A stretch of DNA of 29,122 nucleotides from a virus, in IMG/VR virus record IMGVR_UViG_3300020156_000024, one strand, 5' to 3'. The notes under the pieces are model-generated. The model was given only the letters and a program-made list of their open reading frames with translations, made no database searches and was not told the origin of the DNA. This document shows positions 1,084 through 16,738 of this stretch, one piece after another. Each line of letters starts with the position of its first letter. Position 1 is the first letter of the stretch. Both the position numbers and the translations under genes were made by a program.

Positions 1084-1280
1084 CAGAGCTCCACCTCTGG
1101 TCGACGTGGGGCGTGACGCCGGCCAGATACCAAGCCGAACCGGCGTCACGCCGTATCTCAGCCGCTCGCCCATTTCTGTGGCGGCGGCCATATCTCGACG
1201 GTAGGACATCGAACGCTCTGCGTGAAGGATGCCTGCAACTTTCAATTTGATGCCATCAGGATGATGTGTCGTCCAAATAC

Positions 1281-1314
1281 TTGATTTCGCCGTGAAAGAT
1301 GTCAGACTGATGTG
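1281..1314 (+). promoter_or_regulatory. Possible leaderless promoter for XRE gene
   Basis: TTGATT-16-CAGACT, 6 nt before ATG1315, in AT-rich divergent intergenic region; no SD. Confidence 0.35.
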
Positions 1315-2148
1315 ATGTCCAGTTATCCTCGCCATCTCACGCGAGACCTTCTCGGCAAGCGGCTCAGGGAGTTCCGGCAAGCGGCCGGCATGAGCCTCGC
1401 CGAAGCGGCAGAGCAGACCGACATCTCCGAGGCCAAGCTCTCGAAGCTCGAGCGGGCCGTGAACAACGCCGTCAAACTCCCCGACATCTTCGCGTGCGCG
1501 AACGTCTACGGCATGTCGCCGGAGGAGACGACGCACATGATCGAGTTGGCGAAGGGCGCCGACTCACCGTCCTGGTTCCACCCGTACGACGTCCCGCGCG
1601 AGTTCGCCAACTTCCTCGAGCTGGAAGGCGCGGCCAGCACCCTCCACATCTACCAGCAGGAGTACATCGACGGCCTCTTCCAGACCGAGCGGTACGTCGC
1701 CGCGCTCCGCGAGGCCCGGCCCGACACCAAGGGCGGGCCGGACGACGGGCTCAGAATCGAGCGGCAAGAGGCCGTCCTGAACCGTCCGGAGCCGCCCTCG
1801 ATCGTGTACGTCACCGACGAAGCGGCGCTGCGGCGGGACGTAGGCGGCCCCGCGGCGATGCGCGATCAGGTAGACCACCTGGTTGCGATGGACGACCGCG
1901 ACCACATCAGCATCTACGTGATCCCGTTCGCGGCTGGCGCGCATCCTTCGATGGACGGCGCCTACCGACTCATGTACTTCGACGGAACGTTCCCCACGAC
2001 GGTCTATCTAGAATCACTCCACGGGAGCCACTACGAGAACGCCGAGAAAGACGTTCGGCAGTACGCGGCGGCCTTCCACAGAACGCGACAGCCAGCACTG
2101 GCTGTCCCGATCAAGGAGTTCATGGATGAAAACTACAAGCTGGCGTAA
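1315..2148 (+). CDS. XRE HTH / DUF5753 transcriptional regulator (Scr1-like)
   Basis: N-terminal LGKRLREFRQAAGMSLAEAA..KLSKLE HTH; C-terminal LELEGAAS..GLFQTERY..DEAALRR..IPFAAGAH..VYLESLHG typical of DUF5753. Confidence 0.92.
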   Translation: MSSYPRHLTRDLLGKRLREFRQAAGMSLAEAAEQTDISEAKLSKLERAVNNAVKLPDIFACANVYGMSPEETTHMIELAKGADSPSWFHPYDVPREFANFLELEGAASTLHIYQQEYIDGLFQTERYVAALREARPDTKGGPDDGLRIERQEAVLNRPEPPSIVYVTDEAALRRDVGGPAAMRDQVDHLVAMDDRDHISIYVIPFAAGAHPSMDGAYRLMYFDGTFPTTVYLESLHGSHYENAEKDVRQYAAAFHRTRQPALAVPIKEFMDENYKLA

Positions 2149-2305
2149 GTCCAGCAAAAGTGCCAATTCAGGCGACCAGAACTGTGTCGAGGCCCGCCGG
2201 GCCGAGACCACGTTCCAGGTCCGCGACTCGAAGCTCGGCGACGGTTCGCCGATCTTCAGCATCGACGCCGAGGAGTTCGAGAGGCTGTTGGGCGCCGTCC
2301 GGTAG
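2126..2305 (+). CDS. DUF397 domain protein (59 aa)
   Basis: Hand translation MKTTSWRKSSKSANSGDQNCVEARRAETTFQVRDSK...; WRKSS..CVE..VRDSK signature; overlaps XRE stop; absent from ORF track. Confidence 0.93.
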   Translation: MKTTSWRKSSKSANSGDQNCVEARRAETTFQVRDSKLGDGSPIFSIDAEEFERLLGAVR

Positions 2306-2370
2306 TGACCTCTGACCCCATCAGCGGCAAACCGGACGACGCCACATCGGCTTGGTATCCCAAATAGAGT

Positions 2371-2409
2371 AGCGGCCTTCCCGACATTCCGGGGAGGCCG
2401 CTTCATTCT
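2371..2409 (+). terminator. Intrinsic terminator after DUF397
   Basis: AGCGGCCTTCCCG / CGGGGAGGCCGCT stem followed by TCATTCT. Confidence 0.6.
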
Positions 2410-2470
2410 GTGCCGGGGCGTCCGCAGGACCGGACCGTGCAGCCCGGCGGCGAGCCGCACAGTCCGGCCC

Positions 2471-3313: not shown

Positions 3314-3580
3314 ATGGCCAGCACCCCCGAACTCCGCACCGCGATCCAGAAGATCCTCGCCAACCACGGCGCCTGGATGACTCTCCGAACCCTCCGCGCC
3401 CGGTTCGGCCTGGCCATCACCCGCGACGCCCTCGACGCCGCGATCCTCGACCTGGTGCGCACTCACTCCCTCCGCCTCATCCCCGAGTCCAACCAGAAGA
3501 CCCTCACCGAGGCCGACCGGGCCGCCGCCATCACGATCGGCGGCAAGGCCCACCACGTCCTCCACTGCAACGACCGATAG
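3314..3580 (+). CDS. Hypothetical protein, possible winged-helix fold
   Basis: GAGGAG SD; 88 aa; strongly C-ending codons. Confidence 0.75.
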   Translation: MASTPELRTAIQKILANHGAWMTLRTLRARFGLAITRDALDAAILDLVRTHSLRLIPESNQKTLTEADRAAAITIGGKAHHVLHCNDR

Positions 3581-3587
3581 CCGACGG

Positions 3588-3607
3588 GGCCCCGGGAGAC
3601 CGGGGCC
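3588..3607. repeat. Intergenic hairpin repeat GGCCCCGG-N4-CCGGGGCC copy 1
   Basis: Loop GAGA; just after TAG at 3580. Confidence 0.75.
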
Positions 3608-3634
3608 TTAACCGTGCCCGGGGCACGGCGAAAC

Positions 3635-3670
3635 GCCCCCGCTCCGATTGGAGCGGGGCTTCTTCTTTTC
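3635..3670 (+). terminator. Intrinsic terminator between convergent genes
   Basis: CCCCGCTCC-gatt-GGAGCGGGG followed by CTTCTTCTTTTC. Confidence 0.75.
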
Positions 3671-3740
3671 TCAGGGGTGCCGGTGGCCGCGCAGACCCTT
3701 GACCACGCTCTCGTCGGGTACATGCTGCCCGGGGAGGGGG

Positions 3741-3950
3741 CTACACGGTCCGGTCGTCTTTTCCGCGCTGGTCCTTGATGGCTTTGATCGCCGCTTGGCG
3801 GAACACCCAGGTCTTGCCGACGAGTTGCCCGGGGATGCGGCCGGCGGCGGCACTCTTGACGATGGCTTGGCGGCTCACGCCGAGCTCTTCGGCGGCCTCG
3901 GTGGCGGAGAAAAGTGGCGGGATCTTGGGATCGGGGGTTGGCGTCGTCAT
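3741..3950 (-). CDS. Excisionase-like HTH DNA-binding protein
   Basis: LFSATEAAEELGVSRQAIVKSAAAGRIPGQLVGKTWVF: HTH_17/Xis-type pattern. Confidence 0.8.
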   Translation of the reverse strand: MTTPTPDPKIPPLFSATEAAEELGVSRQAIVKSAAAGRIPGQLVGKTWVFRQAAIKAIKDQRGKDDRTV

Positions 3951-4039
3951 GCGTTCACGGTACCTGAGTGGTTTCCAAATGACAACTACCTGGGGTGCAT
4001 CATCCGAACGGCTGAATCTGCATTGAACTGCTCTCTAGG

Positions 4040-4070
4040 GTTGTCAATTGACAACTTGATGGGTAGGCTT
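4040..4070 (+). promoter_or_regulatory. Promoter with perfect 16-bp palindrome over -35
   Basis: GTTGTCAATTGACAAC (4040-4055); TTGTCA-17-TAGGCT. Confidence 0.65.
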
Positions 4071-4099
4071 ATGGCATACCCACCGAGAGGAGCCCCCAG

Positions 4100-4441
4100 A
4101 TGGCCGCCACCGCCCCCACCAACCAGCGCACCGCCCTCGCCTGGGCCCGCCGCCAGCTCACCCGCCAGCTCCGCCCCTACGCCGCCGCGGCCCCCAGGAA
4201 CATCAACGGCCGGTACCGGGTCTCCTTCTGCCGCCACGAACGCGACGCCCGCAACATCGCCCGCGGCTACCTCAGCGACGACATCTTCGACAACTTCGGC
4301 GAGATCGAGTTGGACGGCAACTGGCCCCGCATTGCCGCGCAGCTGGTGTCCCTCGCCAACAACTACTTCCTTCAGGCCAGGGAAGGCAGCACGGAGCTGT
4401 TCACCTTCTACACCTGCGATACGTGCGACCACACCCGCTAG
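4100..4441 (+). CDS. Hypothetical protein
   Basis: GAGAGGAG SD; 113 aa; good codon bias; C-terminal CDTC. Confidence 0.75.
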   Translation: MAATAPTNQRTALAWARRQLTRQLRPYAAAAPRNINGRYRVSFCRHERDARNIARGYLSDDIFDNFGEIELDGNWPRIAAQLVSLANNYFLQAREGSTELFTFYTCDTCDHTR

Positions 4442-4448
4442 CCGCCAC

Positions 4449-4470
4449 GGGCCCCGGCAGACCGGGGCCC
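4449..4470. repeat. Intergenic hairpin repeat copy 2
   Basis: GGGCCCCGG-CAGA-CCGGGGCCC. Confidence 0.75.
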
Positions 4471-4489
4471 ACCCCCCGAGAGGAGCCCG

Positions 4490-4816
4490 ATGTCCACCAT
4501 CGAAACCCGCCATGAACTCGACGCCGCACTCGACTACCTCCCCGTCGCTGTCCGCGCCGCCGACCGCAACCCGGACAGCGAAATCCTGTGGGCGGAGGCC
4601 TATCACGCCCAGCGGGCCGTCATCGAGGCCGCCGACGCGCGGCTGCCCGAGTACCAGGCCGCCAGGGTGCAAGCCGCAGTCGGGAGCATCGCCGGCCTTG
4701 CCGTTCTCCGCGATGACCTCGCCGTCGTTGCTGGCGCCTACGGCGGCGAGTCCATGGCCACCCGCTCCGAGCGCGCCAAGTCCCGCATCCGTGCCCTCAT
4801 CGCCGCCCCCCGATAG
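4490..4816 (+). CDS. Hypothetical alpha-helical protein
   Basis: GAGAGGAG SD; 108 aa. Confidence 0.75.
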   Translation: MSTIETRHELDAALDYLPVAVRAADRNPDSEILWAEAYHAQRAVIEAADARLPEYQAARVQAAVGSIAGLAVLRDDLAVVAGAYGGESMATRSERAKSRIRALIAAPR

Positions 4817-4822
4817 CCAGCC

Positions 4823-4844
4823 GGGCCCCGGTCTCCCGGGGCCC
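4823..4844. repeat. Intergenic hairpin repeat copy 3
   Basis: GGGCCCCGG-TCTC-CCGGGGCCC. Confidence 0.75.
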
Positions 4845-4859
4845 ACCGAAAGGAACCCC

Positions 4860-5318
4860 ATGAGCATCGTCATCGTCGACATCGACGGCACCGTCGCCCT
4901 CAAAGGCGACCGCGTCGCCTACCACTACCACCTCGCCGACGCCGACCTTCCGAACCGGCCCGTGATCGCCACCGTCGAAGCCCTGGCCGCCGCAGGACAC
5001 CGCATCGTGTTCTTCAGCGGCCGAGAGAACGTGAACTTCGAGACGAACGAAGAGTTCGCCCCGCACGGCCGCACCGGCACCTGCTTCGACCTCACCACCG
5101 CGTGGATTGAAAAGCACATCAGCATCGGTGAGTTCGAGCTGTACATGCGCGCCGAGCACGACCACCGCAAGGACGCCATCGTGAAGCGGGAGATGTTCGA
5201 GACTCACGTGGCCGGCGAGGACATCCTCTGCGCCATCGACGACCGTGACCAGGTCGTGAAAATGTGGCGCGAGGAGCTCGGTCTCACCTGCCTCCAGGTG
5301 GCCTACGGCGACTTCTAG
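4860..5318 (+). CDS. HAD-superfamily phosphatase, polynucleotide kinase (PseT) 3'-phosphatase-type domain
   Basis: IVDIDGTVA, FFSGR, LYMR..DHRKDAIVK, IDDRDQVVKMWR..LQVAYGDF; AAAGGA SD. Confidence 0.88.
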   Translation: MSIVIVDIDGTVALKGDRVAYHYHLADADLPNRPVIATVEALAAAGHRIVFFSGRENVNFETNEEFAPHGRTGTCFDLTTAWIEKHISIGEFELYMRAEHDHRKDAIVKREMFETHVAGEDILCAIDDRDQVVKMWREELGLTCLQVAYGDF

Positions 5319-5336
5319 CCGCCCGCCTAGGCAGTC

Positions 5337-5368
5337 AGGGCCCCGTCCGTGGACGGGGCCCTTCGTCG
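5337..5368 (+). terminator. Probable terminator hairpin
   Basis: AGGGCCCCGTCC-gt-GGACGGGGCCCT then TCGT. Confidence 0.55.
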
Positions 5369-5404
5369 TGCCCGCGCTGAGCCGAATCGTCCGACAGATG
5401 CGTC

Positions 5405-5443
5405 TTGAAATCTGCATCCGCAGGATGTCATACTGTGTGACAT
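5405..5443 (+). promoter_or_regulatory. Putative promoter/operator of the transfer operon
   Basis: TTGAAA-18-CATACT; inverted repeat ATGTCA-N7-TGACAT over -10. Confidence 0.45.
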
Positions 5444-5533
5444 GCGTCCGATGTGAACCACGGACACGAACAAGGCCTCGTCCGGCGCTGCTACGCCATC
5501 CGAGGCCTCTCACCACCGATTGGAACGGACCCA

Positions 5534-6064
5534 ATGATGGATGAATCCACTGTACAGACGATCCCCGTTTCCTACTTCCTGACCACGACGAACCCGTCAG
5601 CGGGCGTGGAGGTCATGGTCCTGCATGCCGACACGGAAGTCCCCAAGCACTGGGTGGACGGCCGCAGTTACTTCACGGAAACGAACCACTGGCTGTACGA
5701 CGAGCAGAGCATCACCGCAGGCGGGTGGATCTGGAGCGGCTTCCGCTCCTACGCGATTGGCTGGCACTGCACCGGCCCGAGCACTGCCGAGCTGCTCCTG
5801 GAAGCGCGCGTCGACGAGCTCGAGGAGGAGATCGCGAACGAGAGGATCTTGCACGGCCTCACCCGGGAAGACGTGGCCGCCTGCGAGGCCGACATCGAAG
5901 CGCTCAAGGCCCGGCGCATCAAGATCCGAGGCTTCCTGCGCCGCTCCCGCAAGGCCACCGCCGCCGCCGAGGGCCGGTTCAGGGTCGCCCTCCAGGTGGC
6001 CTACGCCGGGTGGTCTGCCGCGATCCTCCTGGCGGCCTTCCTGGTTGAGTCGGTGATCCGATGA
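5534..6064 (+). CDS. Hypothetical coiled-coil protein with C-terminal TM helix
   Basis: ORF 5453..6064, probable start ATG5534; ATGA overlap with next gene. Confidence 0.65.
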   Translation: MMDESTVQTIPVSYFLTTTNPSAGVEVMVLHADTEVPKHWVDGRSYFTETNHWLYDEQSITAGGWIWSGFRSYAIGWHCTGPSTAELLLEARVDELEEEIANERILHGLTREDVAACEADIEALKARRIKIRGFLRRSRKATAAAEGRFRVALQVAYAGWSAAILLAAFLVESVIR

Positions 6065-7473
6065 TCGACGTGCGCGAGTCCGAGACCGCGCCGTCCGAGA
6101 CTGCCGCCAAGGCCGCGGCGAAGGTCACCCGGGTCGCTGGGACGACTGAGGCGCGCATCGCCGAGAAGGACGCCGATTCCGCGCGCCGCCTCCGTGAGCG
6201 CGAGGCTGAAGTCGAACTTAAGCGCCAAGAGGCCAAGCTCAAGCGCGAGCAGGCCACGGCGAAGGCCGACGCCAAGAGCACGCGGAAAGCTGCCGCCGCC
6301 AAGCGCCGGCAGGACCGACGCCGTGCCCGCGCCGAGCGCATCACCAAGGCCGTTACCCGCGTGCAGACCTTCATCGCGGGGAACGCGCCCGCGGTTTACT
6401 CCTCGGGCATCTACGCGATGGCGCTGTACGTCGCCGTGGCCGGGCAGATCAGCATGGCGACCGAGCGCGGCTGGCCGCTCGTCGTCGGTATCGGCATGGC
6501 CGTGTTCCTGGAGGGCCTGGCGCTGAGCATGGCGCTCACGGCGCATCAGCTACGACTCAAGGGCGAGCGGGCCCTCATCCCCGCAGCGATGACGTGGGTT
6601 GCGGCCGGATTCGCGTCGGCGATCAACGTGGTTGCGCACCGCGAGGATCCGGTCATGGCCGCGGTGCTCGGAGCCTCCAGCCTCGCGGCGATCATCGTCT
6701 GGGAGGTCCGCTCCGGCGCGAAGCACCGCGACGCCCTCCGGAAGCTCGGTCTCGTCCCGGACCCGCCGGAGCGGTTCGGGCTGCGCCGCTGGCTCCGGTT
6801 CCCCCGGTCAACGTTCCGGGCTTGGTCCCTGGACGTGCGCGACCGCGTGAGCGACGGTGCAGCCGTGCTCCTGGCCCGAGTCGAGACCGCTGTCCAGGAC
6901 GCCGCCGCCGCCTCCTCGGCGGAGTCCGCGGCCGCCGCGCTGGCAGCCGCGGTCGAGGCCGCCGAGACCGCCGCCCGGGAATCCGGCCGCGCCCGGGCCG
7001 CGGCTGCCGAAGCCCACCGGGCCGCGAGCCGGGCCGACGCGCCGAAGCGCGCGCGCTGGTCCCTGTTCAAGCGCAGCGCCGCGGCCGACGCGCCCGCGCC
7101 CGCCCCGGCCGAAGCGCCCGCGGTCCCGCCCGCGCCCGCGTCGAAGCCGGCCGCCGCGGCCAAGGCGCCCGTCCGCCCCGCGCCCACTGCGGCCCCGACG
7201 GAAGCCGACGGGGCGCCTGCACCGCGCCCGGCCGTGTCCGCCGTGAACTTCACCGTGGTCGAGGACGCCTTCGTGGAGCTGTTCGTGCAGAACGGCAAGC
7301 GCCCGGGGTCGCGTCTGATCGAGCGCGCCGTCAAGGGCGAGCCGGACGCGCCCCGCAAGACGGCGATCGGGGACTGGCTCTCGCGCAACCCCGACAGCAT
7401 CATCGACACGCTCACCGCCCGCGCCGAGGCCCGCCTCGCCGCCCGCGCCACGACGGAGGGACCGTCCGCATGA
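6061..7473 (+). CDS. DUF2637-like membrane protein (plasmid/AICE spread or transfer protein)
   Basis: Coiled coil, 4 TM segments, conserved PERFGLRRWLRFPRSTFRAW, Pro/Ala linker, C-terminal HTH-like region. Confidence 0.75.
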   Translation: MIDVRESETAPSETAAKAAAKVTRVAGTTEARIAEKDADSARRLREREAEVELKRQEAKLKREQATAKADAKSTRKAAAAKRRQDRRRARAERITKAVTRVQTFIAGNAPAVYSSGIYAMALYVAVAGQISMATERGWPLVVGIGMAVFLEGLALSMALTAHQLRLKGERALIPAAMTWVAAGFASAINVVAHREDPVMAAVLGASSLAAIIVWEVRSGAKHRDALRKLGLVPDPPERFGLRRWLRFPRSTFRAWSLDVRDRVSDGAAVLLARVETAVQDAAAASSAESAAAALAAAVEAAETAARESGRARAAAAEAHRAASRADAPKRARWSLFKRSAAADAPAPAPAEAPAVPPAPASKPAAAAKAPVRPAPTAAPTEADGAPAPRPAVSAVNFTVVEDAFVELFVQNGKRPGSRLIERAVKGEPDAPRKTAIGDWLSRNPDSIIDTLTARAEARLAARATTEGPSA

Positions 7474-8024
7474 CCGACCAGCCGCCCGCCGACGGCCGGG
7501 CGCCCGCACCGGGCGCCCGCTCGGCTCTGACCATCGACATCCCGCTTCCGCCCGCCCGCCCAGCCGTCGGCCGCGGCCGGGCGGGCGCGGACGCCCCGGT
7601 GTCCCGCCCGCCCGGCCCGGAGGCGCCGGGGGCCCGGCCGCCCGCCGTGTCGCCCGCGCCCGCACCCGTGGTGCGCCCGTCTCCCGCCGCCCGCCCGGCC
7701 CGCGACCGCCCGCCCGCATCGCGAGCGCCCGCGCCCGGCCTTAGCTATGAGGAGCCCACGATCGAGTGGCGGGCGATCAAGCCGCGGCCGGTCGCCGGGC
7801 ACCGCCCGGTGCGTCTGGCCCGCCCGGCTCCCGTCGGGCGGCACCTCGCCGTCGTCGGATTCGGCGCCGCCGGGCTCGGCCTCGCCGGATGGCTCGCCGG
7901 GCTCCTCTCCTCGACGCTCCCGTTCGTGCTCCTTGGCTGGGGCGCGAGCGGCACGATCGTGCTCCTCGTCGTCGTGCGCATCGGCCGCCGTATCGGCGAC
8001 GCGATCGGCGGTGGCTCCAAGTGA
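7470..8024 (+). CDS. Pro-rich protein with two C-terminal TM helices (Spd-like)
   Basis: GGAGGG SD, ATGA overlap at 7470; 3' part of ORF 6594..8024. Confidence 0.65.
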   Translation: MTDQPPADGRAPAPGARSALTIDIPLPPARPAVGRGRAGADAPVSRPPGPEAPGARPPAVSPAPAPVVRPSPAARPARDRPPASRAPAPGLSYEEPTIEWRAIKPRPVAGHRPVRLARPAPVGRHLAVVGFGAAGLGLAGWLAGLLSSTLPFVLLGWGASGTIVLLVVVRIGRRIGDAIGGGSK

Positions 8025-8033
8025 ACGCGATCA

Positions 8034-8093
8034 GGACATTCGCACGGACATCCGTAGGGACATCGGCAGGGACATGTCCCCGTGTCCGTGTCT
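8034..8093. repeat. GGACAT direct repeats at 12-bp period plus inverted copies; candidate clt/TraB recognition locus
   Basis: GGACAT at 8034, 8046, 8058, 8070; palindrome GGGACATGTCCC 8069-8080; GTGTCC 8082, GTGTCT 8088. Confidence 0.6.
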
Positions 8094-8165
8094 CGCATTG
8101 CCCTTCGACCTCGGTGAACACCGCCGACAGACACCCGCTCCCCTGGATAGGACAGGAGGCCATCC

Positions 8166-9425
8166 GTGGCCGTTGAACCGACCAGCCCGCAACCGCGGGC
8201 ACCCGAACGCGACGGGGTGCCGGGCTCCGAAGTCCTCGGCATGGTCGCGAACGCCGCCGCCCTCGTCCTCACCGCGCTGGGCGGCCTGTGGCTGTGGGTG
8301 GCCGGAGGCCTCCTCGCCGCCGGGGCCGGCGGTCTCGCGTACAACCAGTACCGCAAGCGCCGAGGCGCCCATGGCCGCCGCAGCCCGGCCGGGCACCCGG
8401 GCGGGCGGACCGGTACCGCCCGCTCGGAAGGCTGGCGCCCGTTCAGCCGCGGGCGTTCCGGCCGCGGCCGCTCGGGCGGCGGGCCGGGCGGGCGGTCCAA
8501 CACCGGCCGCAAGGCGGGCGGTCCGCTTGGCGCCCGCACGCCCGGGCGCGGGCGGGCGTCTGGAGCGGGCGGCACCGGTGCGGCCGGGAAGAAGCCGCGC
8601 GGGCGGCGAACGGCCGCTGCCGGAGCGGCCGCGACCGGGGCGAAGCGCCGTCTCCCGTTCGGTCTCGGCCGGAAGGGCCGCGGGACCGGTGCGCCCGGCG
8701 CCGCCCGCTCAGGCGGGCGCTCCGGATCAGGCGGGCGTTCAGGCGGGCGATCGGGCCGTCGAGGTCCCGGTTCCTGGTTCGGCCGCGGGCGCACGGGCGC
8801 GAAGCCCGGAGGCGCCCACGCGGGCGGACGGGCCAGCGGCCGCAAGCCGGGCCGCGGGTCGACGCGTCGTCGCCGGTTCCGCGCCCCCGACCCTCGCCGC
8901 GCTGACACGAAGCTCCTACCCGACAAGACCGACACGAAGCCGCCGACGGCGAAACCGGAGACCGCGAACGAGCCCGCGCAGCCGACCGGTCGGCCCCAAG
9001 CCTCGCAGCCCGCGCAGCGTCCGCCGACGCCCCACCCGAACCGCAACCCGAACACCGTCAACCCGAAAGGACCCAGCATCATGTCCCGACTCGGCCGCAT
9101 GTGGCGCCAGCACTCCGAAGAGGAACTCTCCGCCGCCACCCGCTACGACCCCGAGACCATGCCCGACTACCTCGGCGACCTCCGCGACCTCGTGACCGCG
9201 TTCCAGAACCAGGCCGCCGCACTCGGGAAGATGTCCGCGATCTCCCAGGCCGACCTCCCCGTCGACCAGAACGTCGCCGAGTACATCGCGCAGCTCCAGT
9301 CGCTCATGCACACGATCGCCGAAGGCGCCGACAGCACCGTCTCGAGATTCCTCGCCAAGCACGAGGCCGACATGGCGCGACACAACGCCCCCCGCCCGAA
9401 CGAGAAGAAGTGGAACGTCGGGTGA
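8166..9425 (+). CDS. Transfer-associated protein: N-terminal TM, Gly/Arg-rich linker, helical C-terminal domain
   Basis: AGGAGG SD before GTG8166; GTGA overlap with traB. Confidence 0.7.
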   Translation: MAVEPTSPQPRAPERDGVPGSEVLGMVANAAALVLTALGGLWLWVAGGLLAAGAGGLAYNQYRKRRGAHGRRSPAGHPGGRTGTARSEGWRPFSRGRSGRGRSGGGPGGRSNTGRKAGGPLGARTPGRGRASGAGGTGAAGKKPRGRRTAAAGAAATGAKRRLPFGLGRKGRGTGAPGAARSGGRSGSGGRSGGRSGRRGPGSWFGRGRTGAKPGGAHAGGRASGRKPGRGSTRRRRFRAPDPRRADTKLLPDKTDTKPPTAKPETANEPAQPTGRPQASQPAQRPPTPHPNRNPNTVNPKGPSIMSRLGRMWRQHSEEELSAATRYDPETMPDYLGDLRDLVTAFQNQAAALGKMSAISQADLPVDQNVAEYIAQLQSLMHTIAEGADSTVSRFLAKHEADMARHNAPRPNEKKWNVG

Positions 9426-11605
9426 TCGACCAGCAGACCGCGCCGCCCCCGGCCCCCGCGCCGGGGGCGGCCCCCCGCTCCGCCCGGCCGCGGCCCCTCC
9501 GGGACTGGATCGCCTCCTGGAACTGGAACGCCCACCCGCCCGCATGGGCCGTCGCCAACCTCGCAGTCCTGCTGTTCTGGACCTCCCTGGCCGGGCACCG
9601 CCTCGGCGTGCCGCCGGTGGCCGCGCTCCTCATCGGCGGCATCGGCGCGGCCGCAGCGGTCGGCGCCGCCATGATCGCCGAGCAGGGCGGTGCCGTCATC
9701 GGGTGGCGCCTCGCCTGCTGGATCCTCCCCGCCCTGTGGGCCACGGCCGCCCTTCAATGGTCCCCGCTGCAGCCGTACCTCCTCGGTGCCGGGGTCGGCC
9801 TCGCCCTGGCCGCCTACCTCATCGCCGACGCGATCCGCAAGGCCCGTCGCGCCGCCCAGTCTGCGGGAATTCTCACCGGCGGCGGCAGCACCCAAGTCGC
9901 GACCGCACCGGCCGACCAGATCTGGAACGCCGACGCTCCCGCCGACACCGACGAAGCCAAGCTCGCCGAGAACTGGGACGCCCGGATCCGCCGCGTCACC
10001 TCGATCAAAGGCGCCGAAGTCGTCGGCGTCGGCCTCTGGTCCCAAGGCACCGGGTACACGCTCACCGTCCGCCTGCCCTTGGGCGGCACCTCCTGGAAGG
10101 ACCTCGCCGACTACGCCGAGCCCCTCGCCGAGGACGCCCGCCTCCCCGCTGACTGCGGCATCACCGTCAAGGGCACCAGGCACCGCGGCATCGCCGAAAT
10201 GAAGGTCACCCACCGCAACGTCATGCGCGAGACCCACACCGCCCCCCGCGACTACAGCCCGGCCTCGATCTACGACAAGGCTCCGATCGGGTTCCTCCCC
10301 GACGCCGCCCTCATCAAGATCGCGCTCAAATGGGTGTGGATAGTCCTGATCGGCCAGACCGACTCGGGCAAGTCCTCGATGCTGCACCTGATCAATGCCT
10401 ACCTCGTCCGCTGTGTCGACGCCCTGGTGTGGCAGATCGACATCGGCGGCGGCGGCGGCATCGCCCGACCCTGGATCGCCCCATGGCACCAAGGGCGCGC
10501 CGATCGGCCTGCCATCGACTGGGTCGCGACCACCGTCGAAGAGGCCGAGCTCATGTGCCGCTCCGCGATCGCCATCGTCGAGGGCCGCAAACGGGTCTAC
10601 GCCGACGACCTCGATAACGGCAAGGTCCGCTGCTCGCCGGAGGTCCCGCACATCGTGATCGAGTCCGACGAGACCGCGAACCTGCCCGAGCTCATCAAGG
10701 GCCTCATCACCCAGATCAACCAGACCGGCCGCGGCGCCGGCGTCCGCGGCATCACCTGCTCCCTGCGCGGCACCGCCGACGACCTCCCTACCGCCATCAA
10801 GAAGCACTCGCGGGTGCGCGTCGGCATGCGCGTGAGCGACGCCGACGAGATCCGGTACCTGTTCGACCGGCCCGGCAAAGTCGACCCCGCGCTCGCCGAC
10901 GAGCAGGGGTCGGGCTGGATCGAGCACCAGGACGAGGACGCCGACGGCAAGGCGATCGGCGCCCGCTACATCACCCCGTTCAAAGCGTTCTTCATGCCCG
11001 ACTCGCAGATCGACGAGGCCGCCGTCGCCGTCGCGCTCCTGCGACCCGATCTCGACGCGCCCTCTGTGGCCCTGGCCGACTCGGTCTCCCGGACCGTCCG
11101 CGCCTACACCGACCGGTGGGTGCGCACGATCCCGACCCTGTTCGTCGTCGACGAGGAGCCTGCGCCCGCACCGGTCCCCGCCGACCCCGAGCGGGCCGCG
11201 CGCATCGCCGCGATCGAGGCCGACCAGCAGCGCCGCCACGAGACCGGCGGCAGCATCGAGGAGCGCCTCGCCCGCATGAACGAGCTCGGCGCGAAGATCG
11301 CCGACGGCGCACCCACCGACACGCCGGGGGTTGACCCGGCGACCGTCGCCGAGTTGACTGAGGGCGTACCTGAGGACAACCTCCTCGCGGTCGTGACCGT
11401 CGTCGACCGGGCCGGCGTCGACGGCATCGGTCCCGCCGACATCCTCCGAGCCATCAATGCCGTGCGCGCCGTCGACGACCGGATCAGCGACAAGACGGTC
11501 CAGCGCAAGCTCGCTGAGCTCGTCAATACCGGGATCTTCATCAAGACCGGCCGAGGCCGCTACGTCGCCGCCATCCACACACACCAGGGAGACCAGCATG
11601 AATGA
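9422..11605 (+). CDS. traB: TraB-type FtsK/SpoIIIE conjugative DNA translocase
   Basis: N-terminal TM helices, Walker A GQTDSGKS, Walker B IVIESDE, RGAGVR motif, C-terminal winged helix (ISDKTVQRKLAELV..GRGRY); GTG9422 overlaps upstream stop. Confidence 0.85.
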   Translation: MIDQQTAPPPAPAPGAAPRSARPRPLRDWIASWNWNAHPPAWAVANLAVLLFWTSLAGHRLGVPPVAALLIGGIGAAAAVGAAMIAEQGGAVIGWRLACWILPALWATAALQWSPLQPYLLGAGVGLALAAYLIADAIRKARRAAQSAGILTGGGSTQVATAPADQIWNADAPADTDEAKLAENWDARIRRVTSIKGAEVVGVGLWSQGTGYTLTVRLPLGGTSWKDLADYAEPLAEDARLPADCGITVKGTRHRGIAEMKVTHRNVMRETHTAPRDYSPASIYDKAPIGFLPDAALIKIALKWVWIVLIGQTDSGKSSMLHLINAYLVRCVDALVWQIDIGGGGGIARPWIAPWHQGRADRPAIDWVATTVEEAELMCRSAIAIVEGRKRVYADDLDNGKVRCSPEVPHIVIESDETANLPELIKGLITQINQTGRGAGVRGITCSLRGTADDLPTAIKKHSRVRVGMRVSDADEIRYLFDRPGKVDPALADEQGSGWIEHQDEDADGKAIGARYITPFKAFFMPDSQIDEAAVAVALLRPDLDAPSVALADSVSRTVRAYTDRWVRTIPTLFVVDEEPAPAPVPADPERAARIAAIEADQQRRHETGGSIEERLARMNELGAKIADGAPTDTPGVDPATVAELTEGVPEDNLLAVVTVVDRAGVDGIGPADILRAINAVRAVDDRISDKTVQRKLAELVNTGIFIKTGRGRYVAAIHTHQGDQHE

Positions 11606-11750
11606 CGCCGAACTCACCCGCGAGCAGAAGATCGCGGACGCCGAAGCCCGCCAGCAGGAACTGCACGAGACCGGCGGCACCGTCGAGGAGCGCGTTGCCC
11701 GCCTCAAGGAGCTCGGCGAGCAGATCACCGACGAGCCCGCATCCGAGTAG
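11598..11750 (+). CDS. 50-aa acidic protein homologous to an internal TraB segment
   Basis: AGGGAG SD; overlaps traB stop; 21/34 identity with TraB segment encoded at 11204-11305. Confidence 0.75.
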   Translation: MNDAELTREQKIADAEARQQELHETGGTVEERVARLKELGEQITDEPASE

Positions 11751-11760
11751 GCCAATGCCG

Positions 11761-11796
11761 CAGCGCGCCGCCACGGACCCCGTCGGCGGCGCGCTG
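11761..11796 (+). terminator. GC-rich hairpin ending the transfer operon
   Basis: CAGCGCGCCGCC..GGCGGCGCGCTG; no U-tract. Confidence 0.45.
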
Positions 11797-11835
11797 GCGT
11801 TATGATCCCCGCACACCTACATGGAGAGGCCCGCC

Positions 11836-12210
11836 GTGCGCGATCCGTCGGACATGACCCCGGCCGAACTGCGCTGCCTCCGTGAGGAACTACGGCTCAC
11901 CGTGCGGGCATTGAGCGCCGCGATCGGCCAGACCTACCAGACGATCAGCAGGTGGGAATCCGGCAAGCGCGCCCCATCGCGGTACAGCGCGAACGCGCTG
12001 GTCGACCTTGCGACATTCACCGAAGCGGCTGTGGCTGACATGGTCAAAACTCACGAACCCGGGTCGACCATCGTCACCTACCTGGACGACGAGACGTTCC
12101 AAGAGCACGTCGACATCGGTACCTTCGTGCTCCCGGCGGCGTGGCATAGAGGCGTGGCCTGGCGCGCCGCCCGGCAGATTCCCGGAGCCACCATCACCTA
12201 CCAGTCCTGA
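11836..12210 (+). CDS. XRE-family HTH protein (possibly DUF1870/Aca2-YdiL-like)
   Basis: MTPAELRCLREELRLTVRALSAAIGQTYQTISRWESGKRAP; GGAGAGG SD before GTG11836; TATGAT at 11801. Confidence 0.8.
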   Translation: MRDPSDMTPAELRCLREELRLTVRALSAAIGQTYQTISRWESGKRAPSRYSANALVDLATFTEAAVADMVKTHEPGSTIVTYLDDETFQEHVDIGTFVLPAAWHRGVAWRAARQIPGATITYQS

Positions 12211-12262
12211 CCTCCTCGGCGAACCGGGCACGAGCACTTCACGCCCGCTCTACGCTCCTCTC

Positions 12263-13495
12263 GTGGAGTTGCCTGCACCGATGCTGCCCACCGCGGGGCC
12301 GCTGCCGACCGGGCCGGGGTGGGCGTTCGAGATGAAGTGGGACGGCGTCAGGCTGATCAGTGGATTGGAGCGCGGGATCCTGCAGATGCGCACCCGCCAA
12401 GGCAAGAACGTGCCCGCCTCCCAGTTCCCGGAGCTCACCGAGATCGCCGAAGTCGGGGACGTCATCCTCGACGGTGAGCTGACCGTGTTCGACGGCGACC
12501 GCACGGATTTCGGGGCTGTCCTCCGCAGGCTTCTCGCCCGCGGTCACCGTGCCGCCGTCCTGGCCGAGGAGTATCCGGCGACGGTGCTCGTGTTCGATGT
12601 CCTCCGGTTCGACGGTGAGGATCTACGCCGCCGCCCGTACGAGGAGCGGCGCGCGATCCTCGAGTCGCTCGAGCTCCCGCCCAACTGGGTGGTGCCGCCG
12701 AGTTTCACGAACGGGCCCGCGACGGTCGCGGTGAGTCTCGAGCACGGGCTGGAGGGCGTGGTCGCGAAGCGTTTGGCGTCGCGCTATTCGAGCGGCCGGT
12801 CCAGGAACTGGGTGAAGCAGAGACACCAGGGGATCATCGACGCGGCCGTGGTTGGGTGGGTTCGCAGACCCTCCGGCGGCCTCTCGCTGCTCCTCGCCGA
12901 GCCCGGCACGCTCCTGTACGTCGGCAGGTGCACCGCGCCACGGGGACTCGTCGAAGCCCTCGCGCCGCTCGCCACCGGCACTCCGGCCACGACCGTGCCC
13001 GCCCAGTCCGGTGCCGTGCAGTGGGTCCAGCCGGTGCTGCAGGTCGAGGTGACCGCGTCTTCGCGGGAGCCGGACGGGCGGTTGCGGCAGGCGCGGTTCG
13101 TGCGCGCCCGTCTCGACCAGATCGGGTTACCAGGCACGACGAAACGGCCCCGCCGAAGCGGGGCCGCATCATGCGAACTCACATACCAACAACTCCAGTT
13201 GGCATGTGAGCCAACATCTCAACTCTCAGGCGCGAGCGTTGAGTTCTACTCGGTGGGCGTGTGCTTGACCGTCCCGAGCGGGATCATGCTCGCAGACCCC
13301 TCCGTACCGACCGGCGCGGAACCGATCGACCACGCGAGACTCGCGCCGACCGCCAGCCCGACGACACCCCAGGAGTGCGCCCAGTCGATGTCGTTCCACC
13401 CCCCGACCGCCTCGGCCGTCAGGACCGCGAACCAGGTCCCGCCGAACGTCTTGATGGCACGGTCGCTGGTCTCACGCCAGAAGCGCTTCGTGTAG
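12263..13495 (+). CDS. ATP-dependent DNA ligase (LigD/LigC-type ligase + OB domain); recognisable domain ends ~13126, frame stays open to 13495
   Basis: EMKWDGVR, ILDGEL, VFDVL, LEGVVAK, WVKQR, GRLRQARF motifs; TACGCT 6 nt before GTG12263 suggests leaderless start. Confidence 0.85.
   Translation: MELPAPMLPTAGPLPTGPGWAFEMKWDGVRLISGLERGILQMRTRQGKNVPASQFPELTEIAEVGDVILDGELTVFDGDRTDFGAVLRRLLARGHRAAVLAEEYPATVLVFDVLRFDGEDLRRRPYEERRAILESLELPPNWVVPPSFTNGPATVAVSLEHGLEGVVAKRLASRYSSGRSRNWVKQRHQGIIDAAVVGWVRRPSGGLSLLLAEPGTLLYVGRCTAPRGLVEALAPLATGTPATTVPAQSGAVQWVQPVLQVEVTASSREPDGRLRQARFVRARLDQIGLPGTTKRPRRSGAASCELTYQQLQLACEPTSQLSGASVEFYSVGVCLTVPSGIMLADPSVPTGAEPIDHARLAPTASPTTPQECAQSMSFHPPTASAVRTANQVPPNVLMARSLVSRQKRFV
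13138..13166 (-). terminator. Terminator of the late/lysis operon
   Basis: Minus strand CGGCCCCGC-TTCG-GCGGGGCCG-TTTCGTC (C(UUCG)G tetraloop). Confidence 0.7.
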
Positions 13496-13500
13496 TACAT
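13246..13500 (-). CDS. Holin (r1t-like family)
   Basis: FWRETSDRAIKTF..two TM..SIGSAPVG pattern; AAGGAG SD; lysis context. Confidence 0.85.
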   Translation of the reverse strand: MYYTKRFWRETSDRAIKTFGGTWFAVLTAEAVGGWNDIDWAHSWGVVGLAVGASLAWSIGSAPVGTEGSASMIPLGTVKHTPTE

Positions 13501-13527
13501 GGTCAGTTCTCCTTGGTCGGTTGTGGG

Positions 13528-14235
13528 CTATTCGGTGGCGGCGGCGACGCAGATGACCGCGTCGACAGTGCCGTTGGTGGTGAGGACGGTCTGCGCCTCA
13601 GGTGCAGAGCCCTCAGGGCATAGCGGCAAGCCGTGTTCGGCTACGTATCCCTCGACCTGGGCACGGATCTCGTCCTCGGTCGGTGGCCGGCCGGGCTCGC
13701 CCTGCGCCCCGTCCTGGCCGTCCGCACCGTCGGCCCCGTCCTGGCCGTCAGCTCCTGCAGGTCCGGGCGGCGGCGGGTTCTCCGCGAGGTAGGCCGCCAT
13801 CGCGGCGTACAGCTGCTCGTTGAGCAGGTCCGGGTGATCGGCGAGGACCGAAGCAAACGCGGCGGTAAGCTCAGCGGCGGACGGCTCGAACTCGTACGGG
13901 TGGTCCGCGAAGTACCGCGCGAACGCGGCCTGGATCTGCGGGTCGGTCAGGGTTGGCCCCGGAGGGCCGGGCGGCCCGGTCGGCCCCGATGGGCCGGGAG
14001 CTGGCGTGTACTCCGGGTCCTCGAGAAGTTCCTCGGGCTGCGGAGCGATCGGCTCGACGCCCTGAGCCTCCGCGTTGGACTGCTCGTCACCGAGGGCCGC
14101 CGAGAGCGCGTCGACCCGGGCCTCCTGGACCTCCGACCGCCACAGGACTGCGGCGACGGCGACCAGAACCAGGAGGATCTGCCCCCAGTGTGCGATTGCC
14201 CGCCGGGTCGGGGCCCGTAGCTTCGGCATCCTCAT
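13528..14235 (-). CDS. Membrane-anchored collagen-like protein of lysis cassette
   Basis: N-terminal TM, G-X-Y repeats, C-terminal Cys pair. Confidence 0.75.
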   Translation of the reverse strand: MRMPKLRAPTRRAIAHWGQILLVLVAVAAVLWRSEVQEARVDALSAALGDEQSNAEAQGVEPIAPQPEELLEDPEYTPAPGPSGPTGPPGPPGPTLTDPQIQAAFARYFADHPYEFEPSAAELTAAFASVLADHPDLLNEQLYAAMAAYLAENPPPPGPAGADGQDGADGADGQDGAQGEPGRPPTEDEIRAQVEGYVAEHGLPLCPEGSAPEAQTVLTTNGTVDAVICVAAATE

Positions 14236-14543
14236 ACCGGGCCTCCGGTCGCGGAGACGACGTCGACGACGATGGACAGGGCGGCGGCGAGCATGGCGCC
14301 GACGACCATGCGGCGGTCAGCTGCGCGCCGTTCGATATTCGCGGTCTTGTCGGCCTCCAGTGCGCCCACGAGACGTTCGACGGACTTCTCCACGTTGGTG
14401 ACGCGGTCGTTGACCCGGCCGAGGTGGGCATCGTGGACCTCGCGGGATACGAGTCCGGCGAGGTCGCTGCGGAGCTCTGTGAAGTCGTCCTTCACGTCCT
14501 TGCGGAACTGCGCGATCTCGCGGCCGATCGGGTCGTCGGGCAT
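14232..14543 (-). CDS. Coiled-coil protein with C-terminal TM (lysis cassette)
   Basis: 103 aa, follows endolysin, ATGA overlap with next gene. Confidence 0.75.
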   Translation of the reverse strand: MPDDPIGREIAQFRKDVKDDFTELRSDLAGLVSREVHDAHLGRVNDRVTNVEKSVERLVGALEADKTANIERRAADRRMVVGAMLAAALSIVVDVVSATGGPV

Positions 14544-14552
14544 GGGCGGGCC

Positions 14553-15701
14553 TTACTCGCGAGCCTCGTTGTCGACGCTACCGAGGACCTCGCGGAGCGC
14601 AGCGGCGACGGCGGCCGTGTCGAGATCGTGGTCGACCGCGGCGGCGACCGCGGTGGCCAGCTCTTCCGGGGACGGGATCGCCTGTCGGACGCCTTCGGCG
14701 ACCGCGGCCGTGATGGCGTCTTCGGTGAGGCCCGACTGGCCCGCAGCGATCGACTTCATCAGGGCTGTCTGCTTGGCCTGCTCGGCGGCGATCTTCTGCC
14801 CGTACAGCAGCGTGTAGTAGTGGTTGGAGGCCGCGAGGAACTTCGCCGGCCACTTGGTGCCCGAGTAGGCAACGCCCTGCCCGGTGATCAGGGGAATTTC
14901 TTCGTCCCAGGTGCTCATGTCGTCCTCCAGGAGGTGTCGTAGGGCGGCCGCGGTGTCGCGGTCGTAGATGCCGTTGGTGGTGATGCGGGCGCGGCGCTGG
15001 AGCTCGCGCACCGCCGCGGTCGTGGCGGGGCCGAAATCGCCGTCCTCGACCAGGCCCGCGTTGATCACGCCGTTGAGGTAGACCTGCAGCGCAAGGACCG
15101 CGGGCCCTTCGGCGCCTTCTCGCAGCGTGGGGGCGGGGAGGCCGGCCACCGGGAGCTTGCCCGCATCGGTGCCCCACGCCCGCTTAAACCAGTCCTCCAA
15201 GGACTCGCCCGAGAGCAGCGACGCGAGGCCTTCCAACGCCTTGCGGTCACCGGCATAGGGCGTGAGAATGCCGATGTGCACATGCCAGGTGTGGGAGGTG
15301 TCGGAGCTGGCCGAGCGGTAAGCGCCGTCCTCGGAGTCCTTGATGCGACCGACGACCGTCCGGCCGTCGAGGGTCCCGTAGAACTCTTTGACGCACCGCA
15401 TTCGCGGGTCCCGTCGGGCGGCGCCGTCCAGGAGACGCCGCGTGATCGTCCTCATCCACGTGTCGTTCATCGTGAGGTCGATCGCGCGCGCTTTGTCCTT
15501 GGGGTCGCGTCGGTCGATCGCGTGCCGGACCGAGTAGTTGCCGGGCCATTTCGACAGGTTGGCGAAGACCGTGTTGTGGTAGCCCTTCTTGTCGGCGTAG
15601 ATCCCGCCGAGGCGCACGCCCGGGATGAAGCCGTGGCAGGCGAGCCACAGCCACCACATTGCGTCCGTGATGTAGGTGCGGTTCGGGTTCGCCGTGGCCA
15701 T
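14553..15701 (-). CDS. Endolysin: putative Zn-peptidase domain + peptidoglycan-binding domain
   Basis: YHN..RAIDL..HTWHVHI metal motif; PG_binding_1 pattern LREGAEGPAVLALQ..DGDFGPATTAAVRELQ. Confidence 0.85.
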   Translation of the reverse strand: MATANPNRTYITDAMWWLWLACHGFIPGVRLGGIYADKKGYHNTVFANLSKWPGNYSVRHAIDRRDPKDKARAIDLTMNDTWMRTITRRLLDGAARRDPRMRCVKEFYGTLDGRTVVGRIKDSEDGAYRSASSDTSHTWHVHIGILTPYAGDRKALEGLASLLSGESLEDWFKRAWGTDAGKLPVAGLPAPTLREGAEGPAVLALQVYLNGVINAGLVEDGDFGPATTAAVRELQRRARITTNGIYDRDTAAALRHLLEDDMSTWDEEIPLITGQGVAYSGTKWPAKFLAASNHYYTLLYGQKIAAEQAKQTALMKSIAAGQSGLTEDAITAAVAEGVRQAIPSPEELATAVAAAVDHDLDTAAVAAALREVLGSVDNEARE

Positions 15702-15886
15702 TAGTCCAGGCCCTTCGGGGATGGGCCTGCGGAGCGCAGCCGCTCGAACTCGTCGTCGTCCAGGACCACGATGTGTCCCGCGCGGTCGCGGACCTCCCAG
15801 CGGTTGCCCTCGCTGTCGGGTGTGGTCTGGCGGACCTCGTAGCCGCGCTCGGCGTCGAACAGGTGCCAGCCGTGGGGATCGGCCAT
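15701..15886 (-). CDS. Hypothetical 61-aa protein
   Basis: AAGGAGG SD before ATG15886; stop overlaps endolysin start. Confidence 0.65.
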   Translation of the reverse strand: MADPHGWHLFDAERGYEVRQTTPDSEGNRWEVRDRAGHIVVLDDDEFERLRSAGPSPKGLD

Positions 15887-15938
15887 GGGTCCTCCTTGGA
15901 TCTGGGCACGCCGAGGGAGACGGGCCGGTGATGGATTG

Positions 15939-16736
15939 CTAGGACTGGAGGCTGTAGCAGCGGTCGACGATGACGCGGGACTGGACGCCCGCGGTGTTTC
16001 GCGCCCACAGCTGCACCGAGTGCGAGGTGCCATTCGGTTCGATGGTCGAGCCCCAGCCGGGAACGTCGAACGTGGCCACGGTCGTGCCTGACGCCGAGCC
16101 CGCGACGACGCCGTCGACCTGCAGCTGCCAGTCGACCGTCCCCGAGGGGGCGTTCGTGCCGACACCGATGGAGATCCGCGGATGCCACAGCGTCGTGATG
16201 CCGTGCATGACCTCCTGGTAGGCCACGTTTGTGAACGCCGGCCAGAACGGTCCGCCGGTGGCAACGGACGTGCCCGTCGACGGGACCATCGGGATGTTCA
16301 GGTAGGGGCGCGCCAGGCCGACACCCGTCTCGGAGTCGTTGGAGACGAGCTCGTTGCCGAGGCGGTCCAGACCGGCCCAATAGGACCGGTCGGTGCTGCC
16401 GAAGAGCCCGAACGCGGGGTCGCCGTTGCCGTGGGAGAACCGCCAGACCGCGACGCCGGATGCGTTGGTGCCGATGAACACCAGGCCGATCGTGTCGTCC
16501 TCGTTGGTCATGCGCAGGGCGCCGCCGCGGATGATGATGTCGCCGGCGTCGTTGACTTCGATATTCCCGGCATCTTCGACGACGATCCGTGCGCCGGAGT
16601 GGACTCGGAACACCCCTTCGCTGACCGAGGTGGCCTGGGCGGTGCGGGCGGTTCGTGATTGCTGGTTGCGGCGGCGATCGTCCTGGATGGCTCGTAGTGG
16701 CCCGTCGCCTGCTGTCGCGTCAGTCCAGACCGTCAC
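15939..16736 (-). CDS. Minor tail protein
   Basis: GGAGGGG SD before GTG16736; beta-rich; position after hub protein. Confidence 0.75.
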   Translation of the reverse strand: MTVWTDATAGDGPLRAIQDDRRRNQQSRTARTAQATSVSEGVFRVHSGARIVVEDAGNIEVNDAGDIIIRGGALRMTNEDDTIGLVFIGTNASGVAVWRFSHGNGDPAFGLFGSTDRSYWAGLDRLGNELVSNDSETGVGLARPYLNIPMVPSTGTSVATGGPFWPAFTNVAYQEVMHGITTLWHPRISIGVGTNAPSGTVDWQLQVDGVVAGSASGTTVATFDVPGWGSTIEPNGTSHSVQLWARNTAGVQSRVIVDRCYSLQS

Positions 16737-16738
16737 GG

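Follow-up and report, generated by a model that had tools for sequence, protein, structure and literature searches.

Can a conjugation module that stands against the lysis and tail genes of a phage be part of that phage, and might it carry phage DNA from one cell to another? The question is posed by the viral record IMGVR_UViG_3300020156_000024 of IMG/VR, 29,122 nucleotides long (this whole stretch is called the window, and all positions are counted along it), in which a six-gene cassette encoding a TraB-type, FtsK-like translocase of double-stranded DNA (dsDNA) lies beside holin and tail genes. What the window covers is the left half of a temperate prophage of the siphovirus type, integrated in the soil actinomycete Glycomyces, in which a fixed slot between the immunity/early arm and the lysis genes holds the cassette. 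Comparison with related sequences indicates that the cassette is an integral, evolutionarily retained part of this prophage. We regard the element, with a modest degree of confidence, as an integrating hybrid of a phage and an actinomycete integrative and conjugative element (AICE), in which the circular genome would be docked at a repeat array within the cassette and pumped as dsDNA by TraB.

A TraB-type translocase and its operon

Gene calls were taken from frame analysis of the G+C content at third codon positions (GC3), together with family scans. They place six coupled genes of the + strand (5453-11750) in one co-directional operon, and so uphold the intact operon of a DUF2637-like protein, transmembrane (TM) proteins and TraB proposed in a first-pass annotation of this DNA, which was made from the letters and their open reading frames (ORFs). 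Start and stop codons overlap at 6061/6064, at an ATGA (7470) and at a GTGA (9422), and membrane segments are predicted in all cassette proteins but the last, g50. The features of the cassette are as follows:

5405-5434, + strand: sigma-70-like promoter candidate upstream of the cassette (TTGAAA, 18-nt spacer, CATACT, TG extension)
5453-6064, + strand: g203, first cassette gene, 203 amino acids (aa); GC3 0.85; C-terminal TM segment at residues 178-203
6061-7473, + strand: DUF2637 polytopic membrane protein (Pfam, 5e-10); three to four TM segments at residues 137-217, C-terminal half Ala/Pro-rich
7470-8024, + strand: g184, 184 aa, Pro/Ala/Gly/Arg-rich; ATG at 7470 after a GGAGGG ribosome-binding site, overlapping the upstream TGA
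8034-8087, no strand assigned: candidate cis-acting locus of transfer (clt) or operator array; four direct GGACAT in exact 12-bp phase, the palindrome GGGACATGTCCC, then an inverted GTGTCC
8166-9425, + strand: g419, 419 aa; N-terminal TM segment, Arg/Gly-rich linker and C-terminal domain of ~110 aa; stop overlaps the TraB start
9422-11605, + strand: TraB/Tra-type FtsK-like dsDNA translocase, 727 aa; GTG start overlaps the g419 stop
11598-11750, + strand: g50, 50 aa, duplicating a TraB linker segment (repeat match to 11204-11305)

The 727-aa protein is a TraB-type dsDNA translocase, as its sequence and its structural model indicate, and DNA recognition is predicted for its winged helix. The Walker A and B motifs and the winged helix named in the first-pass annotation are indeed there: Walker A reads GQTDSGKS and Walker B VIESDE, and in an alignment of 128 sequences the G-x4-GK of Walker A (G311-x4-GKS) and the D416-E417 of Walker B are invariant. 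Hydrophobic segments at residues 62-140 and four long helices at 40-152 (predicted local distance difference test, pLDDT, >90) mark an N-terminal membrane anchor. Assignment to the FtsK/SpoIIIE-like family phrog_31069 of PHROGs was made at 1.5e-69, and an exhaustive profile search with TraB gathered 1213 protein clusters at E <1e-3, mostly of ~700 aa. Against the PDB, the profile matched the FtsK motor 2iuu at 2.6e-15 and also the pCW3 coupling protein TcpA; its alignment by hhalign with the experimentally defined Tra of pIJ101 gave a probability of 97.7% (E 1.9e-12, 294 columns).

Structural modelling agrees with these assignments. With 16 sequences, the motor domain of an AlphaFold2 model could not be relied on (pLDDT 56); the model was replaced by one from 128 sequences (pLDDT 88.5), in which four N-terminal membrane helices are followed by a small alpha/beta domain, an FtsK-like alpha/beta motor, a helical linker and a winged helix. 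The latter is predicted at residues 653-716 (helices 653-667, 671-680 and 690-702, strands 706-708 and 714-716; pLDDT 82-95). In a Foldseek search with the model, the top ranks went to FtsK motors on dsDNA (6t8o and 6t8b, at E 1.7e-14 and with a target TM-score of 0.63), and TcpA, a coupling protein of conjugation, was likewise among the best structural matches.

The smaller genes are less readily classified. No match was found for g203 in Pfam, PHROG or NCBIfam, nor for g184 and g419 in Pfam or NCBIfam; g184 has two to three C-terminal TM-like segments at residues 131-178 (in its 190-aa reading). TM segments occur in g203, DUF2637, g184 and g419 alike, and the DUF2637 protein showed no similarity to the plasmid-spreading (Spd) protein SpdB of pIJ101, Spd being a class without a sequence definition. 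The C-terminal domain of g419 (9066-9425) is helical, ends in the motif H-E-x-D-L-x-R-H-E-x-P-R-x-N-E-x-x-W-N-V and corresponds to no Pfam family; it may be an undescribed TraB accessory domain. The promoter candidate, a consensus match only, is the sole one within 5200-13600, where shuffled sequence gave a mean of 0.1, and a GC-rich hairpin lies 3' of g50 at about 11759-11802.

The cassette in related prophages and other elements

Close TraB homologs (58-78% identity) were traced to their contigs. Three of these, L014 from Glycomyces artemisiae, the JGI contig L015 and a third contig, L016, encode a TraB ~60% identical to that of the window and hold the cassette in the same position, between an arm with integrase, XRE/DUF5753 and DUF397 genes and the holin, lysin and tail genes. 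The order in L014 is serine recombinase, XRE/DUF5753, DUF397, HTH_17, proteins of 473, 187 and 405 aa, TraB, a 56-aa protein, a helix-turn-helix (HTH) protein, holin, lysin and tail; L015 is arranged like L014, except that its integrase is of the tyrosine type and that it has a DNA ligase, and in L016 the gene order is again equal. Since the three relatives share this order, the association of cassette and phage has outlived divergence to ~60% protein identity and an exchange of integrase. These are the related prophages with traB linked to tail genes that the first-pass annotation had suggested looking for, and on the 87-kb contig L026 the tra module again adjoins holin and tail genes.

Conservation extends to the small genes. 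L016 has a homolog of g203 (35% identical) in the equivalent position, and a 49% homolog of g184 is found in L014 and L020; both g50 and its match to the internal TraB segment are kept in L014, L015 and L016. DUF2637 homologs adjoin TraB genes in L016 (78%), L014 (67%), an AICE designated L025 (53%), the Natronoglycomyces plasmid p2 (42-52%) and phage Hiyaa (gp98, 30%). The C-terminal domain of g419 is encoded directly 5' of traB and coupled to it in L014-L016, in AICE L025 (35%, 5e-14), in L027 and L026, in Hiyaa (gp101) and on pSQ10, with coordinates L025:9645-10004, L027:5288-5626 and L026:9642-10001 in three of these.

Across window positions 1-2423, 3578-5383 and 13246-20000, a prophage in genome G001 matches at 97-98% identity (93% in the ligase gene), whereas ~7.1 kb without DNA similarity stands in place of window 5383-12246. 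This substituted stretch codes for four proteins plus one of 665 aa from the TraB superfamily, which hhalign aligned with the window TraB at a probability of 98.8% over 473 columns, including the winged HTH (wHTH); this allele has no match in PHROG and its homology is visible by profile comparison only. Weak relatives of the G001 allele occur on plasmids, one of them annotated 'transfer protein'. Conserved flanks around foreign content define a slot between the genes for a PNKP-type phosphatase and a DNA ligase, in which whole TraB cassettes are exchanged. Searches of the genome contigs for a related locus, with the single TraB protein and with the alignment, returned none. Directly 5' of the TraB gene in G001 (L010:7759-8418; C14 82758-83417) lies a gene whose 219-aa product weakly matches a GGDEF domain (1.8e-5).

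The G001 prophage also served as a proxy for the ends of the window's prophage. On its 127-kb contig, the host genes hisG, a bPH_2 protein gene and a hydrolase gene stand directly left of the position equal to window base 1, which places the element in the chromosome and its left end close to where the window begins. No site-specific recombinase is encoded in the window; one stands at the left end in L014 (serine) and L015 (tyrosine), and in G001 the contig breaks off before the prophage is complete. G001 contains another, more distantly related prophage (contig C10; L024, 155000-174999), in which ~2.5 kb without a cassette lead from DUF397 to the lysis genes. This second prophage shares the DUF397 gene, the holin-adjacent sequence and the lysin, and is without the block of PNKP gene, cassette and ligase gene.

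Outside these prophages, the order DUF2637, partner (~436 aa, with the C-terminal domain of g419) and TraB is found in the canonical AICE L025 of a 6.4-Mb chromosome, with Prim-Pol, DUF3631 (RepAM), NUDIX and Xis-like HTH_17 genes as neighbours and with identities to the window of 53% for DUF2637, 47% for TraB and 35% for the partner domain. The module is also present on the 14.7-kb Natronoglycomyces plasmid p2, together with a GntR repressor, and on the Nocardiopsis plasmid pSQ10, whose FtsK/SpoIIIE protein is the closest plasmid homolog of TraB (35% over 526 aa). Many Streptomyces plasmid genes labelled 'DNA translocase FtsK' match TraB at 36-39% in PLSDB, and gene 71 of pZL12 is a 28% homolog. 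Retained in a tailed prophage and homologous to transfer modules of AICEs and plasmids, the cassette bears out the structural part of the phage-AICE hybrid envisaged in the first-pass annotation. Among the PLSDB plasmids with TraB homologs, MOB-suite gives 'non-mobilizable' for 30 of 35 actinomycete plasmids; several are 88-90 kb in size, like pZL12, and may be further plasmid-phages.

Homologous genes are packaged in virions as well. Streptomyces phage Hiyaa (83 kb) encodes a DUF2637 homolog (gp98, 5e-17), the partner domain (gp101) and an FtsK-like protein (gp102), and its genome was read from virions, which means that the DUF2637 and FtsK-like genes are packaged; its genes are less tightly ordered than those of the window and are interrupted by one on the opposite strand. 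The FtsK-like genes of phages Hiyaa, Galactica, Spocter, Keanu, Wofford/Elmer and Thermobifida P1312 show 31-37% identity over the motor domain, and translocases of the FtsK-like type are a routine annotation in Streptomyces phages. A Megablast search of phage records with 5400-13500 gave no match.

Elements that combine conjugation and virions are already known from Streptomyces. Zhong et al. 2010 (J Bacteriol 192:3747) reportedly described pZL12/phiZL12, and Chen et al. 2012 (Plasmid 68:170) pFP4. Like these, the window element joins tailed-phage structural and lysis genes and a TraB/FtsK-type transfer locus on one replicon. According to PMC4170104, pZL12 and pFP4 both conjugate and form infective particles; PMC3583192 states that transfer requires the main tra gene along with two genes next to it, and PMC4487206 presents them as ~90-kb extrachromosomal plasmids with ParA/ParB and RepA, with pSLE1 as a syntenic relative of pZL12. 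In contrast, the window element is integrated (the G001 copy lies by hisG) and its relatives carry serine or tyrosine integrases; it belongs to the genus Glycomyces, and its phage backbone shares no DNA similarity with theirs.

AICEs span 9-24 kb, bring a replication module of their own (RepSA, RepAM or Prim-Pol) and lack virion genes (PMC2440964; PMC3218068). They resemble the window element in being integrated and in having a single TraB-type translocase for transfer, a role that is predicted for the window; they differ in that the window cassette sits in a prophage of >50 kb that has a complete arm of tail and lysis genes, and no such rep gene is found in the window. The plasmids pSVH1, pIJ101 and pJV1 share with it a membrane-anchored FtsK-like motor, a C-terminal wHTH and adjacent membrane proteins; unlike them, the window cassette is without a GntR (KorA/TraR) repressor, and identity with pIJ101 Tra is <20%. 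New in the present element are its integration into the chromosome, its genus, a slot in which TraB cassettes occur as alleles, an array within the operon that relatives conserve, and the partner domain.

The repeat array and the proposed transfer

The repeat locus reported in the first-pass annotation survives in part: most of the repeats within 7480-8860 are coding low complexity, whereas the array at 8034-8087 is real and non-coding, and occupies the sole intergenic gap of the operon (141 bp, between g184 and g419). GGACAY is present in six copies within 54 bp; counted over both strands, the entire window has 42 (Poisson P ~3e-10 per site and ~1e-5 over the window). L014, L015 and L016 each have three to five direct GGGACAY copies at the identical phase, the same palindrome and one inverted copy, and across them the cores of the motif do not vary, in contrast to the spacers. 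No clt-like repeats were found in 11600-11820, a segment holding only g50 and the hairpin.

Other TraB lineages are accompanied by arrays of other motifs. The G001 cassette has its own GTGGACG array, direct and then inverted; L026 has a GGCGACAA array 5' of the partner gene; pSQ10 a CGTTACG array in 12-bp phase just 3' of traB; and AICE L025 a CACAC/GTGTG array 3' of traB. The window array thus differs from those of pSQ10 and AICE L025 in lying 5' of the partner gene and traB. TraB hexamers recognise 8-bp TraB recognition sequence (TRS) repeats in clt (PMC4170104), and a motif that differs by TraB lineage is the pattern expected of a TraB-clt pair; the phased array of the window is comparable to the 8-bp TRS or the 9-bp clt repeats (PMC4170104, PMC3583192). 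The array is a candidate clt, a likely docking site of TraB. A fixed slot with an AICE-type cassette, together with swapped alleles of TraB plus array, implies selection for function.

What the analysis shows is gene content, folds, homology, synteny, the replacement of the cassette and the conservation of the array. From the homology and from the experimental precedent of the plasmid-phages we infer that TraB would transfer the phage circle after excision; binding of DNA at the array and the timing of expression are proposals likewise. The prophage would excise, or an incoming genome would circularise; a membrane-anchored ring of TraB would dock by its winged helix on the phased GGGACAY array at 8034-8087, acting as clt, and the FtsK-like motor would pump the unprocessed double-stranded circle through the hyphal wall or the septal cross-walls. 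The DUF2637 protein, g184, g203 and g419 would act as Spd-like membrane partners, and the phage integrase would establish lysogeny in the recipient. Such an element would spread by virions and without virions, like pZL12 and pFP4, but integrated in the chromosome like an AICE.

Several observations weigh against this hybrid with its own route of transfer. The array, lying in the operon and 5' of g419 and traB, could equally well be an operator for the HTH protein encoded at 11821-12210. The cassette is accessory and, on the comparison with the C10 prophage of G001, dispensable for phage viability. No AICE- or plasmid-type replication initiator or integrase was found in the window, which is the left half of the prophage: the scanned ORFs included no RepSA, RepAM or Prim-Pol, such as AICEs carry, and the window has no par or rep genes of the kind by which plasmid-phages are maintained outside the chromosome. 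No recognisable tyrosine or serine integrase and no ParA were detected in Hiyaa, so in some phages the module may serve something other than the transfer of a lysogenic replicon. Lastly, TraB had no match in Pfam or NCBIfam and missed the threshold of PF01580 (FtsK_SpoIIIE), a family whose match was the criterion for AICE Tra proteins in Ghinet et al. 2011 (PMC3218068). Merely two of 16 close TraB relatives reach even E 0.11 with PF01580; the miss is a limit of model sensitivity and does not count against the FtsK fold.

The set of DUF2637, partner and FtsK-like genes in virion-isolated Hiyaa and its relatives, and the lack of a recognisable integrase or ParA in Hiyaa, favour a different use, in which the cassette would act mainly during infection or induction and move replicating phage DNA via septal cross-walls into adjacent hyphal compartments, much as Spd-type spread within a mycelium does for plasmids. 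One adsorption would then take the whole mycelium, by viral movement and not by conjugation of a lysogenic replicon. All cassette proteins but g50 are membrane-anchored and resemble in this the spreading Spd proteins (PMC4170104). Yet the cassette runs in the direction of the left arm and stands outside the late operon, and outside phages its nearest homologs belong to an AICE and to small plasmids, for which intermycelial transfer is the defining role; nor are the two roles exclusive, since plasmid TraB is needed for spreading too. We consider this use rather unlikely, and give the same low weight to its wider form, a viral cell-to-cell movement system by which the mycelium and neighbouring mycelia would be colonised without an extracellular stage and in which pairs of TraB and array would be specificity alleles.

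Less probable still, though not negligible, is that the cassette is a moron which serves the entry exclusion of plasmids, AICEs or phages, the mobilisation of host DNA or the pumping of DNA into spores, with no transfer of the phage genome. The site is the variable region between immunity and lysis genes where actinophage morons accumulate, the neighbouring PNKP, ligase and GNAT genes look accessory or counter-defensive, the C10 prophage manages without the cassette, and the PHROGs class is 'moron, auxiliary metabolic gene and host takeover'; against this, the phage DNA itself retains a cis array that is specific to the TraB lineage, and a whole multi-gene transfer module is kept, beyond an ATPase alone. 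A separate AICE inserted by chance into the prophage, or a decaying non-functional remnant, is very improbable and largely refuted: homologous modules do occur in an AICE, and G+C is 0.73-0.80 across 6000-9500 against 0.65-0.69 in the flanks, but this rise follows from Ala/Pro/Gly/Arg-rich coding segments, no att-like direct repeat of at least 11 bp bounds the cassette, window ORF scans found no integrase, AICE-type rep gene or tRNA in or beside it, its position and gene order are constant in at least four prophage lineages with TraB ~60% identical, and all six ORFs are intact and translationally coupled. Separate att sites with int or rep genes around the module, named in the first-pass annotation as the sign of an independent element, were accordingly not found.

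The favoured reading, an integrating prophage that may also be passed on by TraB, would bear on how such elements are classified. Phage-plasmids are described as particle-borne (PMC12282955), and reviews usually separate phage and conjugative routes. The characterised dual-route elements, pZL12 and pFP4, are both extrachromosomal, and the present case is an integrating prophage family outside Streptomyces. If transfer takes place, lysogeny would spread without receptors or virions, predictions of host range from tail fibres would be incomplete for actinomycete phages, and mobility typing based on relaxases would miss such elements. The candidate clt and the conserved ~110-aa domain encoded 5' of traB are parts that can be tested.

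Phage arms and flanking genes

The window has a G+C content of 65-80%, and a tRNA search over its whole length found none. The genes on either side of the cassette are:

1312-2148, + strand: XRE-HTH/DUF5753 gene, left arm (family scan)
2126-2305, + strand: DUF397 gene, left arm (family scan)
3741-3950, - strand: HTH_17 gene, left arm
4860-5318, + strand: PNKP-type phosphatase, conserved left flank of the slot (Pfam HAD_PNKP, 1.8e-43; 98% identical in G001)
11821-12210, + strand: HTH_3/XRE-type DNA-binding protein (Pfam HTH_3, 2e-8)
about 12281-13130, + strand: ATP-dependent DNA ligase, conserved right flank of the slot (Pfam DNA_ligase_A_M, 2.5e-24, and DNA_ligase_A_C)
13246-13500, - strand: r1t-type holin, first gene of the convergent lysis/tail arm (Pfam, 1.2e-10; phrog_443)
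13528-14235, - strand: collagen-like Gly-X-Y repeat protein, between holin and lysin (family scan)

On the left, the phage-like small genes of the first-pass annotation were recovered as XRE/DUF5753, DUF397, GNAT, HTH and PNKP phosphatase genes; the arm also encodes a phage-type HTH protein (phrog_2311) and two small ORFs. On the right, its distance of about 1.5 kb from the operon end to the holin holds when measured to the holin 3' end, and family and tRNA scans agree with it that no integrase, tRNA or host gene lies between TraB and holin. The gap, whose contents it had left undescribed, holds the HTH_3 gene and the ATP-dependent DNA ligase gene. The HTH_3 gene is kept 3' of the TraB gene in L016 (77%), in L015 (41%) and, despite the different TraB allele, in G001 (52%); regulation of the cassette by its product is possible. 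The ligase has the KxDG motif, is 92-93% identical to that of G001 and stands outside the transfer module.

Beyond the holin and the collagen-like gene, the minus-strand arm continues with a PG_binding lysin, a Dit-like protein, a 922-aa tape measure protein, the tail tube and head-tail connector proteins, and the capsid, portal and terminase genes were read immediately outside the window in a near-identical contig. The pair of XRE-HTH/DUF5753 and DUF397 genes is kept at the start of the left arm (window 1312-2305, L014:2786-3797, L015:3016-4016), adjoins the integrase wherever these prophages have one, and is possibly an immunity or regulatory module. L015 also has a gene for a 2'-5' RNA ligase/LigT-like protein in its left arm (L015:4875-5393), and a function in nucleic-acid repair or counter-defence is possible for it as for the PNKP phosphatase and the DNA ligase. 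The ligase frame itself (12281-13495) has no stop where the G001 homology ends (~13130) and runs on for ~120 codons, antisense across the holin gene, while the ligase of G001 has 288 aa and is followed by an additional 170-aa gene; the extension is probably a recombination scar that marks the right edge of the slot.

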